Assembly (NCBI GenBank): GCA_963761175.1
Contig: CAVXFZ010000021.1
Span: 198,622-262,621, forward strand
Origin: an uncultured Actinomycetes bacterium
Lineage (GTDB): Bacteria > Actinomycetota > Acidimicrobiia > IMCC26256 > PALSA-610
Reading direction: 5' to 3'
Length of the DNA: 64,000 nucleotides
In this document: positions 3,828 through 53,176 of the stretch, in pieces
Layout: the number at the start of each line of letters is the position of its first letter
Position numbering within the stretch: position 1 is the stretch's first letter
Program-made: the position numbers and the translations under genes
Notes under the pieces: model-generated
The model's database searches: none
The model's input: the letters and a program-made list of their open reading frames with translations, nothing else
What the model was told of the DNA's origin: nothing

Positions 3828-4774
3828 GCGACGCCCTCGACTCCGTGGCAACCGAGCTCGCCGAGCGCCTGCCCGGGCGCGTCGAGCGCGCGGTCGCGAG
3901 CGGTCGCTACACGACCTACCGCGTCGGTGGTCCGTTCGCGGTGCTCGTGCACGCCGCCGACGATGCCGCGCTCGACGCGACGGCCTCGGTGCTCGGACGC
4001 GCGACGGTCCCGGTGCTCGTGCTCGGGCGCGGTTCGAATCTGCTCGTTGCCGATGCCGGCTTCGCAGGCGTCGCGCTCGTGCTCGGCCGCGGCTTCGAGG
4101 CGATTGCCGTCGACGCTCCGGGCGCCATCGTGCGGGCCGGGGGAGTGGCAGCCTTGCCGGTCCTCGCGCGTCAGGCCGCGGCGGCCGGCGTCGGCGGTCT
4201 CGAGTTCTACGTCGGCATCCCGGGCACGGTCGGCGGCGGCGTGCGGATGAATGCCGGGGGTCACGGCCGCGAGACGAAGGATGCGCTCGTCGATGCCGAC
4301 CTGTACGACCTCCGGTCCGGAACCCGCGAGACGCGAGCGGCCGACGCGTTCGACTTCGCCTACCGGCGCTCGAACGTGACCGAGACGACCGTCGTGACCG
4401 CGGCGCGCTTCGCCGGCGTACCCGACGATCCCGAGGTGTGCGGCGCGCGGATCGAAGAGATCGTGCGCTGGCGTCGCGAGCACCAGCCCGGAGGCGCCAA
4501 CGCGGGATCGGTCTTCTCGAACCCTGTGGGCGACAGCGCGGGCCGGCTGATCGACGCCGCCGGCCTGAAGGGCCTACGCGTCGGTGGCGCCACGGTCAGC
4601 GAGAAGCACGCCAACTTCATCGTGGCGGATGTGTCCGCGACCGCCGCCGACGTCCGGACCCTGCTCGATGCGGTCCGCCGTCGCGTCGCCGACACGACCG
4701 GCGTCGTGCTCCAACCCGAAGTCCGGCTCGTCGGTTTCGACGAGACCGCGTTCGCCGATTCCGGAGGTGCGTGA
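3824..4774 (+). CDS. murB: UDP-N-acetylenolpyruvoylglucosamine reductase MurB
   Basis: In-frame ATG 3824 inside ORF 3014..4774 (ATGA overlap with the murC stop). YTTYRVGGPFAVLV and VLGRGSNLLVAD FAD-binding motifs. The upstream part of the ORF is Arg-rich out-of-frame noise. Confidence 0.9.
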   Translation: MSDALDSVATELAERLPGRVERAVASGRYTTYRVGGPFAVLVHAADDAALDATASVLGRATVPVLVLGRGSNLLVADAGFAGVALVLGRGFEAIAVDAPGAIVRAGGVAALPVLARQAAAAGVGGLEFYVGIPGTVGGGVRMNAGGHGRETKDALVDADLYDLRSGTRETRAADAFDFAYRRSNVTETTVVTAARFAGVPDDPEVCGARIEEIVRWRREHQPGGANAGSVFSNPVGDSAGRLIDAAGLKGLRVGGATVSEKHANFIVADVSATAADVRTLLDAVRRRVADTTGVVLQPEVRLVGFDETAFADSGGA

Positions 4775-5754
4775 TGTGCCCCCCTGACGATCCCCGTCGC
4801 GGCACCACCGTCGAGGTGGTCGACCCCGAACGCGAGACCGACGACGCCGGCGCGCGGGTGGCGACCGCGCCGGATGTCGAGGTCGATATCGATCTCGGCG
4901 CTCTCGAACGCGGCGCTCTCGAACGCGCCGCTCTCGAACGCGCCGCTCTCGAACGCGCCGCGTCGGAGGTCCGGTCCGCGGCTCCTCCAGTCGACCCGCG
5001 GATCGAGGCGCGCCGGATCGCAGTGGAGCAGGAGCAGGGGCGCCAGCGTCTGCGGCTTCTCGTCCTGGCCCTCGGCGCATTCGTCGTGCTCGGTTCCCTG
5101 TGGCTGCTCGTGCAGTCGCCGTTGCTCGATGTCGACCGCGTCGTGGTCACCGGTGTGCCGTCGGGGAGGGTCGCGGCCGTCGCCGCCGCGAGCGGTGTGC
5201 ACCGGCACGATCCGATCCTGTTCGTGTCGAGCGGTTCGGTCGCCCGCCGGATCGAGCACGGGGTCCCGGGGATCGGATCGGTCGTCGTGACCCGGCAGTT
5301 CCCGGGCACGGTTCGTATCGCCGTGCACGAGCAGGGTGTCGCGTTGTACGTGCGCACGACGGCTGGTGTCGCGCTGGTCAGCCACGACGGTCGCGTGACC
5401 GGACACGCGGACACTCCGCCGGTGGGTGTGCCGGAGTTGATCGGCGCGGGGCGGCATCCGGTGGTCGGCCGTCACGTCGGCCCGGCCGGCGTCGCCGAGG
5501 TGATGGAGGAGTTGCCGCCCGCGTTGCGCGCGCGCGTCGGCGCGATCAACGTCGCGACGGCCGGCCACGTTCGGCTCTATCTCGTCGGCGCCGGCGAGGT
5601 GCGGCTCGGCGACCTCGAGGACGTCCACGACAAGGGCGCCGCGGCCGAAGCAGTCATCGAGAGCTTCCCGCCCGGTTGCCAGTGGGCCTACATCGATGTC
5701 GAGGCCCGCTCGGCACCCGTTGCCAAACCCGGTCCCGGCTGCGCGTCGTCGTAG
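4774..5754 (+). CDS. ftsQ: Cell division protein FtsQ (POTRA domain), with pentapeptide repeat in the N-terminal tail
   Basis: ATG 4774 overlaps the murB TGA (TGATG). Single TM (LRLLVLALGAFVVLGSLWLLV) followed by a POTRA-like LLDVDRVVVTGV... segment. Sits directly before ftsZ. Confidence 0.8.
   Translation: MCPPDDPRRGTTVEVVDPERETDDAGARVATAPDVEVDIDLGALERGALERAALERAALERAASEVRSAAPPVDPRIEARRIAVEQEQGRQRLRLLVLALGAFVVLGSLWLLVQSPLLDVDRVVVTGVPSGRVAAVAAASGVHRHDPILFVSSGSVARRIEHGVPGIGSVVVTRQFPGTVRIAVHEQGVALYVRTTAGVALVSHDGRVTGHADTPPVGVPELIGAGRHPVVGRHVGPAGVAEVMEELPPALRARVGAINVATAGHVRLYLVGAGEVRLGDLEDVHDKGAAAEAVIESFPPGCQWAYIDVEARSAPVAKPGPGCASS
4897..4956 (+). repeat. 4 x 15-bp perfect or near-perfect tandem repeat inside ftsQ encoding (G/A)ALER x4
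   Basis: ggcgctctcgaacgc / ggcgctctcgaacgc / gccgctctcgaacgc / gccgctctcgaacgc read directly. Translates to LERGALERAALERAALERAA. Confidence 0.9.
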
Positions 5755-5768
5755 CCGGGACCGCCGGC

Positions 5769-6013
5769 GGCGAGCGTTTGCGGTGGCGGTATCCGCCACC
5801 GCCGCGAGTGCGACGGGCAGGTGTGTGAGCCACAGGTGCGCGTGCGTTCCCATCCCGCGTGTGGAGCGGCGAGCGTTTGCGGTGGCGGTATCCGCCACCG
5901 CCGCGAGTGCGACCGGCAGGTGTGTGAGCCACAGGTGCGCGTGCGTTCCCATCCCGCGTGTGGAGCGGCGAGCGTTTGCGGTGGCGGTATCCGCCACCGC
6001 CGCGAGTGCGACC
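5769..6013. repeat. 99-bp tandem repeat, about 2.5 copies, each copy carrying the hairpin GCGGTGGCGG-TAT-CCGCCACCGC
   Basis: Copies start at 5769, 5868 and 5967 (period 99). They are identical except one C/G difference (gcgacGggcag vs gcgacCggcag). Located 15 bp after the ftsQ stop, in the ftsQ-ftsZ intergenic region. Confidence 0.9.
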
Positions 6014-6025
6014 AATGAGATCGCG

Positions 6026-6054
6026 TTGACCCGGCTGCCGCGCTCCGGTAGAGT
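6026..6054 (+). promoter_or_regulatory. Candidate sigma-A promoter for ftsZ: TTGACC-17 nt-TAGAGT
   Basis: -35 TTGACC 6026-6031, 17-nt spacer, -10 TAGAGT 6049-6054, 86 nt before ftsZ ATG 6141. The predicted 5'UTR contains the hairpin AGGTTGA(6070-6076)/TCAACCT(6085-6091). Confidence 0.4.
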
Positions 6055-6140
6055 CTCGACCCGCAGAACAGGTTGACATAAGTCTCAACCTGAAGTCAAG
6101 GTCGAGGGTCGCCCGCTCGCCTGAGACCGGAAGGGTCGCC

Positions 6141-7211
6141 ATGCTCGGGAATCCGCAGAACTACCTCGCGGTGATCAAGGTGGTGGGAGTCGGGGGCGGT
6201 GGCTGCAACGCGGTCAACCGCATGATCGACGCCGGGTTGAAGGGCGTCGAGTTCATCGCGGTGAACACCGATGCCCAGTCGTTGCTCCTGTCGGACGCCG
6301 ACGTGAAGCTCGACATCGGCCGCCAACTCACGCGCGGTCTCGGTGCGGGCTCCGACCCCGAGGTCGGCCAACAGGCCGCCGACGAGCACCGCGACGAGAT
6401 CGAAGAGGTGCTCAAGGGTTCCGACATGGTCTTCATCACCGCCGGCAAGGGCGGCGGTACCGGGACCGGCGGCGCCCCCGTCGTGGCCGAGATCGCGAAG
6501 AACCTCGGCGCGCTCACGATCGGTGTCGTCACCCGTCCCTTCGGGTTCGAGGGCCGGCGGCGCTCGGTCCAGGCGGAGTCGGGCATCCAGAAGCTGCGCG
6601 AGAAGGTCGACACGATCATCGTCATCCCGAACGAGCGCCTGCTCCAGGTGTCCGACGAGAAGACGTCGATGCTGAACGCGTTCAAGATGGCCGACGAGAT
6701 CCTCCTGCAAGGTGTGCAGGGCATCACGGACCTCATCACGACGCCCGGTCTCATCAACACCGACTTCGCCGACGTGAAGATGATCCTCACCAACGCGGGA
6801 TCTGCGCTCATGGGCGTCGGCTACGCGTCGGGCGACGGCCGCGCGGTGGCCGCGGCTCGGAGCGCGATCTCGAGCCCGCTGCTCGAGGCCAGCATCGACG
6901 GCGCGCGGGGCATCCTGCTCAACGTGAGCGGTCCCTCCGACCTCGGCCTCTTCGAGCTGAACGAGGCCGCCGAGATCGTCGCCCAGTCGGCGCACCCCGA
7001 CGCGAACATCATCTTCGGTGCGGTCATCGACGACTCGCTCGGCGACGAAGTGCGCATCACGGTGATCGCCGCCGGCTTCGATCGCTTCGAGGGTGAGCAC
7101 CGTCCCAGCCGTTCGACGAGCGAGCTCGGGCTGCGCGACGACGAGACGTTGGTCGGACCCGAGCTCAGCCTCGGCGACGACGACTTCGACGTGCCGGAGT
7201 TCCTGCGCTGA
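6141..7211 (+). CDS. ftsZ: Cell division GTPase FtsZ
   Basis: 356 aa, [14 protein letters not shown] and tubulin signature [23 protein letters not shown] 6129-6135. Confidence 0.97.
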
Positions 7212-13023: not shown

Positions 13024-13128
13024 TGGGTACGCGGACCCGCTTCCTTTCGACCGTGCTTCCCGCGGTAGCCTCGCTCATCCCCGCCATACAGCTGCCTCGC
13101 AGCTGCGTCGTTCGCAAGGAGCGTTGCG

Positions 13129-14625
13129 TTGTCTGCCGAGTCGCGTCATCCCGGCCGCTGGAGCGTGGCGCTCGCGGCCATCCTTTTCAGCGCGCTCGTC
13201 CCCTTCGTCACCGCGGCCCCCGCATCGGCCGCCGCACCGGCGCCACACGGCGACGACACGGTGCTCACCTTCGGCGCCGCAGGCTTCTACGGGTCGACCC
13301 ACGGTCGTCACCTCTCGGCGCCCATCGTCGGGATGGCGTCCACGCCGTCGGGCAAGGGCTACTGGCTCGCGGCCTCTGACGGTGGGGTGTTCTCCTTCGG
13401 CGACGCGACCTTCCACGGATCCGCGGGCGGCATCCATCTCAACCAGGCGATCATCGCGATCGTCGCGACTCCGGCCGGCAAGGGCTACTGGCTGGTCGGC
13501 TCCGACGGCGGCGTCTTCTCCTTCGGCGACGCGGCCTTCTACGGCTCGACGGGCTCGATGCACCTGAACGCACCGATCATCGGCATGACGGCGTCGCCTT
13601 CGGGTCACGGCTACTGGCTGATGGCACGCGACGGCGGCGTCTTCAGCTTCGGTGACGCGACGTTCCACGGTTCCACGGGCTCGATGCACCTGAACGCACC
13701 GATCGTGGGGATGGCCTCGACGGCGTCCGGTCATGGGTACTGGCTGGTGGCACGCGACGGCGGCATCTTCAGCTTCGGTGACGCGACGTTCCACGGTTCG
13801 ACCGGTTCGCTGCACCTTGCCGCGCCGATCGTCGGCATGGCGGCGACGGCGAGCGGGCACGGCTACTGGCTCGCGGCCCGCGACGGCGGCATCTTCAGCT
13901 TCGGCGTCGCGCCCTTCGAAGGCAGCGGTGCGGGTCACGTCTCGTCGATCGACCAGGTCGTGCAGATCACGTCGGTGCACACCGGGTACGGGTACCGGCT
14001 CCTCGTCCTGCCCCTGCCGTTCGACACGCCGCTGCTCTCACCCGGCGCGAGCGGTCCCGCGGTGGTCGCGCTGCAGCAGCACCTGCTCGCGCTCGGCTAC
14101 TGGCTCGACACCGCGAACGGCAACTACGGCCTGACGACGCAGCAGGCGGTCTACGCCTTCCAGAAGGTGGAGGGCCTGCCGCGGACCGGGATCGTCGACA
14201 TCCGCACGAGTCAGGCACTCGAGACCGCCCGACGCCCGGCCCCCCGTTCGACCGCGGGGTACGTCGCCGAGGTCGACCAGGAACACCAGGTCATCTTCAT
14301 CGAGCGCGACGGCGCCACGCTCTGGGTGATCAACACGTCGACCGGTTCGGGCATCCCCTACACGCTCGACGGCGTCCGGTACACGGCGCAGACGCCCAAC
14401 GGTCACTTCACGGTGATCAGCCAGATCAACGGGAACGACATCTCCCCGCTCGGGCAGCTGTGGCGGCCGAAGTTCTTCACCAGAACCGGCATCGCCTTCC
14501 ACGGATCGCCGTCGATCCCGCCGTATCCGGCGTCCCACGGCTGCGTGCGGATGACGAACGCGGCGATCGACTGGATCTGGGCGAGCAACACGATCCCGAT
14601 CGGGACCGCGGTCTGGGTCTACTGA
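13129..14625 (+). CDS. Secreted L,D-transpeptidase: signal peptide + six 42-aa repeats + PG-binding domain + YkuD catalytic domain
   Basis: TTG start with AAGGAG 7 nt upstream. Signal peptide ...TAAPASA|AAP. Repeats GYWL..DGG[VI]FSFGDA.F.GS. LALGYWLDTANGNYGLTTQQAVYAFQKVEGLPRTG (PG_binding_1-like). HGSPSIPPYPASHGCVRM (YkuD active site). Confidence 0.85.
   Translation: MSAESRHPGRWSVALAAILFSALVPFVTAAPASAAAPAPHGDDTVLTFGAAGFYGSTHGRHLSAPIVGMASTPSGKGYWLAASDGGVFSFGDATFHGSAGGIHLNQAIIAIVATPAGKGYWLVGSDGGVFSFGDAAFYGSTGSMHLNAPIIGMTASPSGHGYWLMARDGGVFSFGDATFHGSTGSMHLNAPIVGMASTASGHGYWLVARDGGIFSFGDATFHGSTGSLHLAAPIVGMAATASGHGYWLAARDGGIFSFGVAPFEGSGAGHVSSIDQVVQITSVHTGYGYRLLVLPLPFDTPLLSPGASGPAVVALQQHLLALGYWLDTANGNYGLTTQQAVYAFQKVEGLPRTGIVDIRTSQALETARRPAPRSTAGYVAEVDQEHQVIFIERDGATLWVINTSTGSGIPYTLDGVRYTAQTPNGHFTVISQINGNDISPLGQLWRPKFFTRTGIAFHGSPSIPPYPASHGCVRMTNAAIDWIWASNTIPIGTAVWVY
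13246..14008 (+). repeat. Coding tandem repeat, 126-bp (42-aa) period, about 6 units
   Basis: The Trp of GYWL recurs at aa 79, 121, 163, 205 and 247. DNA units starting 13555 and 13681 are nearly identical (tcgatgcacctgaacgcaccgatc...). Confidence 0.85.
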
Positions 14626-14806
14626 CGGCCGATGCGCCCGCCCGGCTCTCGGGTGCGGTGCGACGAGCTCTCGGCGGGCCGGGCCGTCGCGGCGCGCGCG
14701 CGGTCGGTGAGGTCGCGATCGCCCCGCGGTGATGAGTACAATCCGGCGCCCTGATCGGGCGGGACGCGGAGCCGGTCACCGCGGGCGCCGAGGGAAGGAT
14801 CGTTTC

Positions 14807-15730
14807 ATGGCCAAGGGAACGCGCACGGCTACGCCAAGCAGAGCCGGCTCGGCGCGCACGGCGGCGGCACCCGCCCGCGCGGCCCGGACCACGACGAAGC
14901 AGGCCGCGCCCAAGGCGGCGACCGCGGCCCGGCGGACGGCGAAGGTGCCCGTGAAGGGCGCGGCGAAGGCGAAGGTGAGCGCGAAGGTCGCCGCGAAGAA
15001 GGCGCACGCGAAGGCGCCGGCCAAGGCCGTGAGGAAGGTGGCGAAGGCTCCCGCGAAGGCCGCGGGGAAGTCGCCCGCGAAGGCGACGAAGAAGGTGGCG
15101 AAGGTTCCTGCGAAGGCCGCGTCGAAGGCGAAGGCGAAGGCGACGGGGAAGGCGACGAAGAAGGCGCCCGCGAAGGTCGCCTCGAAGGCGACCGCGAAAG
15201 CGACGGCAAAGCCGACCAAGGCGGCGGCAAAGGCGGCCAAGAAGGCGCCGGCCACGAAGCCGAAGGCGCCGAAAGGTCCGCCGGCGCTCGTTCCGAAGGC
15301 CGCGCCGACGCGCCCGGTGCTCTCGGAGGTGGTCGTGCGCAAGCACCGCACGCCCGCCGTCGCCGCGAGCACGCTCGAGCGGCTACGCGCGCAACTGATC
15401 GAGGAGCGAGACCATCACCTCCGCCAGGCCGACGACCTGCTCGCCGAGGCCGAGGCGCTCGCGACCGAGCGGGAACCCGGCGATACGCAGTTCGACGAGG
15501 AGTCGGGCGAAGGCGACACGTTGAGCGTCGAGCGCGAGCGTGACCTCGCGCTGTCGGCGAGCGCGCGCCAGACCGTCGACGACATCGCCAAGGCGCTCGC
15601 CCGCATGGACGACGGCAGCTACGGCTACTGCGAAATCTGCGGCGACCGGATCCCCGTCCCCCGGCTCGAGGCGATCCCGTGGGCCGATCAGTGCGTGAAG
15701 TGCAAGTCGCGTGGAGAGCGGCGCCGCTGA
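14807..15730 (+). CDS. Bipartite protein: N-terminal Lys/Ala/Pro-rich histone-H1-like tail + C-terminal DksA/TraR C4 zinc finger (DdbA-like)
   Basis: ATG 14807 with GGGAAGGA RBS. About 185 aa of AKKA/PAKA/KATKK repeats, a coiled-coil segment, then CEIC-x17-CVKC. Lies immediately upstream of lspA. Confidence 0.85.
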   Translation: MAKGTRTATPSRAGSARTAAAPARAARTTTKQAAPKAATAARRTAKVPVKGAAKAKVSAKVAAKKAHAKAPAKAVRKVAKAPAKAAGKSPAKATKKVAKVPAKAASKAKAKATGKATKKAPAKVASKATAKATAKPTKAAAKAAKKAPATKPKAPKGPPALVPKAAPTRPVLSEVVVRKHRTPAVAASTLERLRAQLIEERDHHLRQADDLLAEAEALATEREPGDTQFDEESGEGDTLSVERERDLALSASARQTVDDIAKALARMDDGSYGYCEICGDRIPVPRLEAIPWADQCVKCKSRGERRR

Positions 15731-51451: not shown

Positions 51452-51457
51452 ACCACC

Positions 51458-53176
51458 GTGCGTCGTCAGCTCTGGCTCCTCATCGTCACGGTTGTGCTGG
51501 TCGTCGCCGCGTTCGCGGCGACGTTGCTCGGCAGCAGCCGCCCGCAGCTCGGTCTCGACCTCCAGGGCGGGATCTCGGTCGTGCTCTTCCCGGTGAAGGG
51601 CTCCGACCTCTCGACCCTCGACACCGCGCGGCAGATCATCTCCAACCGCGTCGACGCGATCGGGGTCGCGGAGCCGGAGGTGAACGTGCAGGGCAGCACG
51701 ATCGTCATCAACCTCCCCGGCGCGAAGAACCGCTCGCAGGCCCTCGCGCTCGTCGGCCGCACCGCCGAGCTCCAGTTCCGCGAGGTGCAGCAGTTCGTGC
51801 CGTACAGCGCGGTCGTCGGCGCGACCACCACCACAGCCAAGGGCGCGACGACGACCGCGAGTGGCGCGACCACGACGGCCGCGAGTGGCGCGACCACGAC
51901 GACCGCGACCGCGACGACCACGACGGCCAAGGGCGCGACGACCACGAAGAAGGGCGCGCTCGGTTTGCGCCTGAACCTGCAACCGATCTCCGCGACTCGC
52001 CCGCTCGCCGCCAGCGCGACCACCACGACCCCACCGCTCACTGCCGCGCCGGTGGTGGGCGCAACGACCACCACGGTCGCCGGCGCGACGACCACGACCG
52101 CCAAGGGCGCGACCACGACGGCGGCGCCCGCCACCACGACCACGACGCTCAAGCCGGGGTCGACGTGCAAGTCGCTGCTGACGCCGTCGGCGCAGATCAA
52201 GACGAACGAATCCGTGGTGCTGCCGTACAAGGCGTCGAAGGCGAGCGATCCGCAGGCGGGCTGCTACTTCCTCGGGCCGACGCTGCTCACCGGCCGGGAG
52301 ATCGGTAGCGCGGACGCGCGCTACGACCTCAGCCAGGGCGGTTGGTACGTGACCGTGCACTTCAAGAACAACGACTTCGCCGACAAGATCGGCGGCCCGG
52401 AAGTCGGCAAGCAGGTCGCGATCGTGCTCGACGGCGTCGTGCAGTCGGCGCCGCAGATCAACGCGGGCATCACCGGGAAAGACGTCCAGATCACCGGGTC
52501 CTTCTCGTCGAAGGAGGCCCACGATCTCGCGTTGGTGCTCCGCTACGGCGCCCTGCCGATCCAGTTCGACCAGAAGCAGCAGACCGTCGAGAACGTCTCG
52601 CCCGAGCTCGGCAAGGACCAACTCCGCGCGGGTCTCGCCGCCGGTCTCATCGGAATCGGGCTCGTCGCCCTCTACATGATCCTCTTCTACCGGTTGCTCG
52701 GCCTCGTCGTCTGGGTCGGCCTCATCCTCACCGCCATGATCTTCTTCAGCCTCGTCACCTATCTCGGCCACGCGCAGAACCTGACGCTGACCCTCGCGGG
52801 GGTGACGGGGATCATCGTCTCCGTCGGTGTCACCGTCGACAGCTATGTGGTCTATTTCGAACGGCTCAAGGACGAGGTGCGGATGGGGAAGACCATCCGC
52901 TCGTCGCTCGACTCCGGCTTCCGCCGCGCGTTCCGCACGATCGTCGCCGCCGACCTCGTCTCGCTGATCGGCGCGATCGTCCTCTACCTGCTCGCGGTCG
53001 GTTCGGTACGCGGCTTCGCGTACTTCCTCGGGATCTCGACGGCGCTCGACCTCGTACTCGCGTACTGCTTCATGCACCCGATGGTGTGGCTGCTCTCACG
53101 GCGCCCGACCCTGGTGCGGATGAAGGGCATCGGGATCGCCAGTGGTCTCGACGTGGTGCGGGAGATGTCGCGATGA
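51458..53176 (+). CDS. secD: Protein translocase subunit SecD (with Thr/Ala-rich insertion)
   Basis: 572 aa, LGLDLQGGISVVL, ...NRVDAIGVAEPEV..., C-terminal six-TM RND-like domain. Confidence 0.93.
   Translation: MRRQLWLLIVTVVLVVAAFAATLLGSSRPQLGLDLQGGISVVLFPVKGSDLSTLDTARQIISNRVDAIGVAEPEVNVQGSTIVINLPGAKNRSQALALVGRTAELQFREVQQFVPYSAVVGATTTTAKGATTTASGATTTAASGATTTTATATTTTAKGATTTKKGALGLRLNLQPISATRPLAASATTTTPPLTAAPVVGATTTTVAGATTTTAKGATTTAAPATTTTTLKPGSTCKSLLTPSAQIKTNESVVLPYKASKASDPQAGCYFLGPTLLTGREIGSADARYDLSQGGWYVTVHFKNNDFADKIGGPEVGKQVAIVLDGVVQSAPQINAGITGKDVQITGSFSSKEAHDLALVLRYGALPIQFDQKQQTVENVSPELGKDQLRAGLAAGLIGIGLVALYMILFYRLLGLVVWVGLILTAMIFFSLVTYLGHAQNLTLTLAGVTGIIVSVGVTVDSYVVYFERLKDEVRMGKTIRSSLDSGFRRAFRTIVAADLVSLIGAIVLYLLAVGSVRGFAYFLGISTALDLVLAYCFMHPMVWLLSRRPTLVRMKGIGIASGLDVVREMSR
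51818..52156 (+). repeat. Low-complexity coding repeat GATTT(T)A(K/S) inside secD
   Basis: GATTTTAK GATTTAS GATTTAAS GATTTTATATTTTAK GATTTKK ... GATTTTVA GATTTTAK GATTTAAPATTTTT, read from the ORF translation (aa 121-233). Confidence 0.7.

Follow-up and report, generated by a model that had tools for sequence, protein, structure and literature searches.

Between ftsQ and ftsZ of an uncultured Acidimicrobiia lineage lies a tandem array in which a perfect palindrome recurs every 99 bp, directly upstream of a promoter for ftsZ. This arrangement raises two questions: what kind of element is the array, and does it take part in the control of ftsZ? An original prediction, made from the DNA alone, had placed the array in the main control region of ftsZ and had suggested, among other readings, a REP-like array or a terminator array. 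We have examined the array within the 64-kb stretch of DNA that surrounds it (the window), and we have compared the locus with those of related genomes.

Architecture of the array and its hairpins

The array occupies window positions 5767-6013. TRF reports a period of 99 bp, 2.5 copies, 99% matches, 0 indels and a score of 487, which makes this by far the top-scoring non-coding repeat of the 64-kb window, and a second repeat search agrees. The prediction of 2.5 copies of a 99-bp unit that differ by one substitution thus describes a real feature of the assembled sequence. Its units had been placed at 5769, 5868 and 5967; the right edge at 6013 is correct, and the true left edge is two bases earlier, a difference of phase only. 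The array, to which no strand is assigned, is organized as H-S-H-S-H, where H is a 49-nt segment with a hairpin and S is a segment of 50 nt: H1 at 5767-5815, S1 at 5816-5865, H2 at 5866-5914, S2 at 5915-5964 and H3 at 5965-6013, for a total of 247 bp. The sole difference between copies is G5815 versus C5914, with C at 6013 in the partial third copy. Copies this close to identity point to recent expansion, in support of the original reading.

The genes on both sides are those that had been named, as database protein matches bear out. ftsQ (4774-5754, + strand) encodes 326 aa, and the identical database protein carries POTRA_1 and FtsQ_DivIB_C domains; the next-best FtsQ in the databases is 62% identical. 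ftsZ (6141-7211, + strand) encodes a 356-aa protein that is 84-90% identical to the best Acidimicrobiia FtsZ proteins, which come from MAGs, and its ATG is preceded by a ribosome-binding site, GGAAGGG, at 6128-6134. Related contigs keep the gene order murC-murB-ftsQ-ftsZ-ylmE-sepF-yggT. The ftsQ stop codon, TAG, is at 5752-5754, and 12 nt separate it from the start of the array. A further 12 nt separate the end of the array from the promoter TTGACC-17-TAGAGT (6026-6054), and 127 nt separate it from the ftsZ ATG at 6141. The elements that flank the array had therefore been identified correctly, and the gaps, given earlier as 15 and 13 bp, measure 12 nt on each side. The GC content of the array (0.72-0.74) equals the genome background, and that of the conserved promoter region is 0.59-0.61. 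An array at background composition fits endogenous, unconstrained sequence.

The palindrome is a 23-mer, GCGGTGGCGG-TAT-CCGCCACCGC, which forms a perfect 10-bp stem with a 3-nt loop and occurs once in each H segment, three times in the array. The three copies are at 5780-5802, 5879-5901 and 5978-6000 (no strand assigned), with centres at about -270, -171 and -72 from the predicted transcription start site (TSS) of ftsZ. The hairpin that had been predicted for each unit is confirmed at 5780, 5879 and 5978. As RNA, the 23-mer folds with -20.4 kcal/mol alone and with -28.9 kcal/mol when its flanks are included. The motifs of a weaker CCACA...TGTGG pairing, also predicted, are present (5831-5835 and 5860-5864) but are not used in the MFE fold. 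Compared with dinucleotide shuffles, the whole 99-nt unit has no extra stability on the + strand (z = -0.66); on the - strand, z = -2.3. Since the unit is no more stable than its + strand shuffles, the 23-nt hairpin alone stands out structurally. A fourth strong stem-loop (5729-5766, + strand) spans the ftsQ stop codon. It has a 14-bp stem of about -30 kcal/mol with arms at 5730-5743 and 5750-5763, and its 3' arm occupies the 12 nt that separate the ftsQ stop from the array; this stem-loop is not conserved in the relative L082. A search of Rfam at a permissive E-value returned noise only, the best match overlapping the array, to Mcr7, scoring 14.5 bits where the gathering threshold is 380.

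The other tandem repeats of the window that we noted lie in reading frames. The only other near-perfect one is about 800 bp from the array, in the part of ftsQ that encodes the cytoplasmic N-terminal tail (4899-4961): an in-frame 15-bp repeat of 4.2 copies and 97% identity that encodes ALERG/ALERA four times. Independent in-frame repeats are found in the FtsQ N-terminal tails of other lineages, with units of 24 bp (3.2 copies), 9 bp (7.3 copies) and 21 bp (2.2 copies); the loci concerned are L082 3015-3090, L083/L084 1546-1611 and L085 1544-1589. At 13318-13917, a diverged 126/252-bp repeat (76-78% identity, 4.7 and 2.4 copies) lies in a GC3-biased ORF (13069-14625) that presumably encodes a repeat-domain protein. 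Dense GCGAAGGCG-type repeats with periods of 12-57 bp fill 14926-15252 of the ORF at 14711-15730; translated in the frame of that ORF, they would give an Ala/Lys-rich low-complexity tail. The ORF at 51452-53176 contains, at 51818-52127, repeats of 21-48 bp (ACGACGACCGCGAG..., up to 89% identity) that look like a coding low-complexity repeat.

The ftsQ-ftsZ spacer in related genomes

We aligned the 386-bp intergenic region to the ftsZ loci of 80 GTDB Acidimicrobiia and to 7 loci of the closest clade, in which FtsQ is 53-62% identical. Across these loci, homology in the intergenic region is limited to window positions ~6024-6119, and the 99-nt unit never aligns in any of them. The C-terminus of FtsQ, PVAKPGPGCASS, is homologous to that of relatives, PVALPAPGATCNP, each followed by its stop; the stop codon is therefore ancestral. 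Among the 21 relatives with a recognizable promoter, 20 have the ftsZ -35 element at -51 to +47 nt from the ftsQ stop and one has it at +152, although the offsets of -50 and -27 at loci L081 and L088, which would put the promoter inside ftsQ, should be treated with caution. In this genome the -35 element is at +271 nt. Because 271 - 247 leaves 24 nt, it is the entire array, beyond mere extra copies, that has been inserted into a normally very short spacer. These alignments indicate that the array is a young, lineage-specific insertion, absent from every relative examined. At the two loci that call for caution, the called ftsQ genes (L081 3001-4131 and L088 1501-2499) continue through the ftsZ -35 and -10 elements and end in C-termini that are non-homologous to other FtsQ proteins, which likely reflects a frameshift, an assembly error or a lost stop codon.

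What relatives do share is the promoter that sets the 3' limit of the array, together with the sequence downstream of it. TTGACC-17-TAGAGT (6026-6054, + strand) is a promoter of sigma-70/SigA type that lies outside the array. The TTG of its -35 element and the TA..GT of its -10 element are invariant across 18 Acidimicrobiia loci, and this conservation supports its earlier assignment as the ftsZ promoter. The alignment shows a TTGAC-N17-TAnAGT promoter and then CAGGTTGACATAAC...CAACCTCAAGTnGAGGTCGAGGGT; in this genome the latter block, CAGGTTGACATAAG...CAACCTGAAGTCAAGGTCGAGGGTC (6069-6110, + strand), contains an FtsR-type box. FtsR (Cg1631/Rv1828) is a MerR-type regulator whose operator, a 25-bp imperfect inverted repeat upstream of ftsZ, has been defined experimentally in the ftsZ promoter of C. 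glutamicum (PMC6683498). Of the 25 positions of that operator, AACCCTAAAGTAAAGGTTGAGGGTA, window positions 6086-6110 match 19. No other site on either strand of the window scores as high, the runner-up reaching 16 of 25, and the box is kept in the alignment of the 18 loci. The conservation suggests that FtsR control of ftsZ, here predicted from sequence, extends to Acidimicrobiia. A search of the six frames of the window for a KIRFLE-type motif found no FtsR gene.

The likeness to the FtsR operator (a 25-bp box upstream of ftsZ, conserved in Acidimicrobiia) is a property of the flanking module only. The array palindrome, in contrast, shares nothing with the motif, and the array lies upstream of the module and outside it. 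The earlier description of this region as the main ftsZ control region thus holds for the region, with its conserved promoter followed by an FtsR-type box, but not for the array as part of that conserved module. Within the conserved leader, we rejected a candidate RNA hairpin, GGTTGA-N8-TCAACC: it shows no consistent covariation in the alignment, and we therefore read it as a pair of DNA-level half-sites and not as RNA structure. A nearly invariant AGGTTGACATAA block, also within the 6026-6110 module, contains a perfect TTGACA.

Tandem repeats of other kinds occupy the same slot in other Acidimicrobiia. At locus L007, a 67-nt unit that carries a GC stem of its own is present in 2.2 copies of 97% identity (2632-2776); this repeat begins 10 nt past the ftsQ stop and ends within the ftsZ -35 element, at the junction of TCCGCACGTTG and ACC. 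In L023 (2822-2882) and L035 (2803-2863), a 20-nt unit in three copies triplicates the -35 element TTGACC itself, and in L086 (2488-2510), 3.8 copies of CCACGA follow the ftsQ stop directly. The units of the 99-nt array, L007, L023/L035 and L086 are unrelated to one another. The presence of unrelated repeats at this position makes the slot look permissive and prone to slippage. As evidence of enrichment, the roughly two to three independent cases are too few to exceed what is seen in intergenic DNA generally. Two further loci have tandem repeats of about 89% identity directly 3' of the ftsZ stop: L019 4103-4162 (23 nt, 2.6 copies) and L031 4109-4177 (22 nt, 2.9 copies).

Alternative accounts of the array

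We favor the view that the array is a real, young, non-coding and near-neutral minisatellite of the VNTR type, specific to this lineage, and we consider this account probable. Intergenic minisatellites built on a palindromic core are well known as a kind of object; for this particular sequence no relatives were detected.

One alternative is that the array belongs to a dispersed element of low copy number (MIRU-, REP/BIME- or MITE-like), which is clustered here and has its other copies outside the window. The MIRU-VNTR loci of Mycobacterium (mycobacterial interspersed repetitive units; Supply et al., 1997, as reviewed in PMC3184786) are close to it in layout. Like MIRUs, which have units of 40-100 bp, the 99-bp unit is tandem, GC-rich and intergenic, contains internal inverted repeats in the form of a perfect palindrome, and lies between co-directional genes (ftsQ and ftsZ) of an operon-like cluster in an actinobacterium. 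Its site is empty in related species, and the near-identity of its copies implies variable copy number. The layout of the array is also suggestive. Since 247 bp is 2 x 99 + 49, either the H-S-H state predates the last expansion, so that H was present twice beforehand, or the array arrived already repeated. Yet MIRUs populate tens of loci per genome, whereas the remaining ~64 kb of the window holds no further copy of the array. The 23-mer is absent outside the array at up to 3 mismatches (chance expectation 0.01), blastn with a word size of 7 does not find the 99-nt unit elsewhere, and no dispersed repeat family is seen in the window. Some 40 copies in a ~4-Mb genome would leave 64 kb empty about half the time (P ~0.5), but at least 200 copies would do so with a probability of only ~0.04. 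The unit also differs from a MIRU in having no ORF that overlaps the flanking stop or start, the ftsQ stop being 12 nt upstream and out of frame with the open + frames, and in its host class, Acidimicrobiia.

Searches of larger collections were likewise empty. An exact 35-mer scan of GTDB genomes gave 0 matches, as did exact scans of JGI metagenomes for the 23-mer hairpin and for a 29-mer of S; a sensitive blastn search with the 271-bp region gave no match in plasmids or phages. We also translated the five open frames of the array as a chimeric query, aimed at spurious ORF calls over other copies of the array, those of this genome included, and found no match among 5.8 billion proteins at E<=10. 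A high-copy REP family is disfavored by the probability of ~0.04 given above, and the REP-like array of the original prediction loses ground accordingly, as no further copy appears in ~64 kb or in any collection searched. The resemblance to the REP/BIME and SMAG elements of Proteobacteria lies in GC-rich stem-loops just 3' of a stop codon, sometimes clustered, and the array hairpin is indeed a short GC-rich palindromic stem-loop (10-bp stem, 3-nt loop, -20.4 kcal/mol). However, REPs are 21-65 nt long and present in hundreds of copies, alternate in orientation within BIMEs and are linked to RAYT transposases; here three direct H copies sit within a 99-nt unit at one locus and at a constant spacing of 99 bp. 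A MITE is ruled out: the ends of the array, GCGGCGAGCG... and ...GAGTGCGACC, do not mirror one another as inverted repeats, and the flanks, GGGACCGCCG and CAATGAGATC, show no duplication, so that the array has neither terminal inverted repeats nor a target-site duplication. On balance, we regard a dispersed element as unlikely. A CRISPR array was rejected as well, as both "spacers" (5816-5865 and 5915-5964) are identical and the context is the dcw cluster.

The array could instead be a selected insulator or attenuator, in which four hairpins cut mur-ftsQ read-through, ftsZ dosage is set by the FtsR-controlled promoter, and copy number tunes the leak. This reading is invited by the position of the array, right in the gap that separates the ftsQ stop from the ftsZ -35 element, by its four very stable stems within 270 nt, and by the independent hairpin-containing repeat that L007 bears in the same slot. 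Termination is where the reading meets difficulty. In common with intrinsic terminators, including the U-less "I-shaped" and hairpin-cluster types proposed for GC-rich genomes, the array offers a stable 10-bp GC stem with a 3-nt loop on the 3' side of a stop codon, and its hairpins follow one another in a series; the GC-rich hairpin expected of an intrinsic terminator is there. A U-rich tract of 7-9 nt after the stem is absent at every array hairpin, however, the downstream sequence being CGCGAGTGCGAC (CGCGAGUG... immediately after the stem), and a consensus terminator scan of 5400-6400 returned 0 terminator-like sites. Recombinant mycobacterial RNAP does not terminate in vitro at hairpins without U-tracts, even with NusA and NusG (PMC3993855). 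A computational study, on the other hand, proposes that hairpin clusters near stop codons in GC-rich genomes can terminate transcription without U-tracts (PMC8355165), but the hairpins of those clusters are <15 nt apart and the array hairpins are 76 nt apart. The terminator array that had been suggested is therefore not one of canonical form. Moreover, the promoter abuts or overlaps the 3' end of ftsQ in most relatives, so insulation is no ancestral requirement. We think it unlikely, to a similar degree, that the array was selected for this purpose.

A related idea takes in the other repeats of the slot: the stretch from the ftsQ stop to the ftsZ -35 element would be a recurrent hot spot of independent arrays in Acidimicrobiia, retained because copy number tunes the mur-ftsQ read-through or the upstream promoter context that reaches ftsZ, in the manner of a contingency-like dosage dial. 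We hold this to be a long shot.

The palindrome could also be an operator. A 23-bp site with perfect 10+3+10 dyad symmetry might bind a dimeric regulator of the ftsZ promoter at about -72 in a class-I-like arrangement, with auxiliary sites at -171 and -270. The proximal site is indeed centred ~72 bp upstream of the predicted TSS, and actinobacterial ftsZ promoters are regulated by a palindrome-binding protein, FtsR (PMC6683498). We nevertheless judge an operator array very unlikely. The palindrome bears no relation to the FtsR motif, itself found separately at 6086-6110; it is missing from all relatives that retain the promoter; and the 64 kb contain no other site. A spacing of 99 bp corresponds to 9.4 helical turns, which would put the palindromes out of phase, and the identity of the three reflects a recent duplication and not conservation. 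Multiplication of the promoter itself was rejected for the 99-bp array, which contains no TANNNT -10 element on either strand; the sole TANNNT in 5755-6060 is the TAGAGT of the downstream promoter. That idea applies to L023 and L035.

Tandem repeats are classic sites of assembly error, and the sequence comes from the assembly of an uncultured organism whose relatives are all MAGs, so we considered whether the copy number, or the whole array, was made by the assembler. Several observations render this highly improbable. The substitution between copy 1 and copy 2 requires at least two distinct copies. Owing to that one substitution, no k-mer of at least 100 is repeated, so that graphs at k=127 or k=141 would be linear, or long reads would resolve the array. 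The contig that carries the array is 417 kb long, and comparable arrays are found at the same place in independent assemblies.

Finally, a small protein or a repeat-protein coding sequence can be dismissed almost entirely: the 99-bp period is divisible by 3 (33 codons) and five of the six reading frames are open through the array, as expected at 70% GC, but GC by codon position is flat in the array (0.64-0.78), unlike that of the real genes of the window (in ftsQ and ftsZ, GC3 is 0.85-0.92 and GC2 is 0.43-0.52), and the five open frames matched nothing in the protein search described above. The flat profile agrees with the earlier remark that no frame of the array looks protein-like.

Proposed origin and predicted effects of the array

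We return to the near-neutral minisatellite that we favor. In this account, the array sits in a short spacer free of constraint, with the ancestral ftsQ stop on one side and the deeply conserved ftsZ promoter/FtsR-box module on the other. It would have arisen by replication slippage or unequal recombination between H copies, probably aided by extrusion of the hairpin, and the same exchange between H copies would keep the array homogeneous. Its copy number probably varies.

The addition of stable stem-loops to ftsQ read-through RNA is, we infer, the only predictable effect of the array. RNA that reads through from mur-ftsQ would gain three stem-loops, each of -20 to -29 kcal/mol, together with the fourth across the ftsQ stop. 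REP and SMAG hairpins alter the stability of the mRNA upstream of them and act as 3'-end stabilizers in a manner that depends on copy number, as in SMAG monomers and dimers versus trimers (PMC3184786). By analogy with these elements, the stem-loops of the array may serve as pause sites for RNAP or as barriers to 3' exonucleases. They could in this way partly uncouple the ftsQ mRNA from ftsZ, which would be driven by its own conserved promoter.

Should the array be no more than a neutral VNTR, it would still have practical value: strains could be typed by it, and it would be a warning to those who assemble such genomes or predict CRISPR arrays and terminators in them. If it modulates read-through or promoter activity, it would constitute a natural copy-number dial on ftsZ dosage. 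The array also marks, by contrast, the constrained part of the ftsQ-ftsZ spacer, which is the promoter and its FtsR-type box. The conservation of this box predicts that the FtsR-ftsZ module, known from Corynebacterium and Mycobacterium, extends to a deep-branching and mostly uncultured class of actinobacteria.
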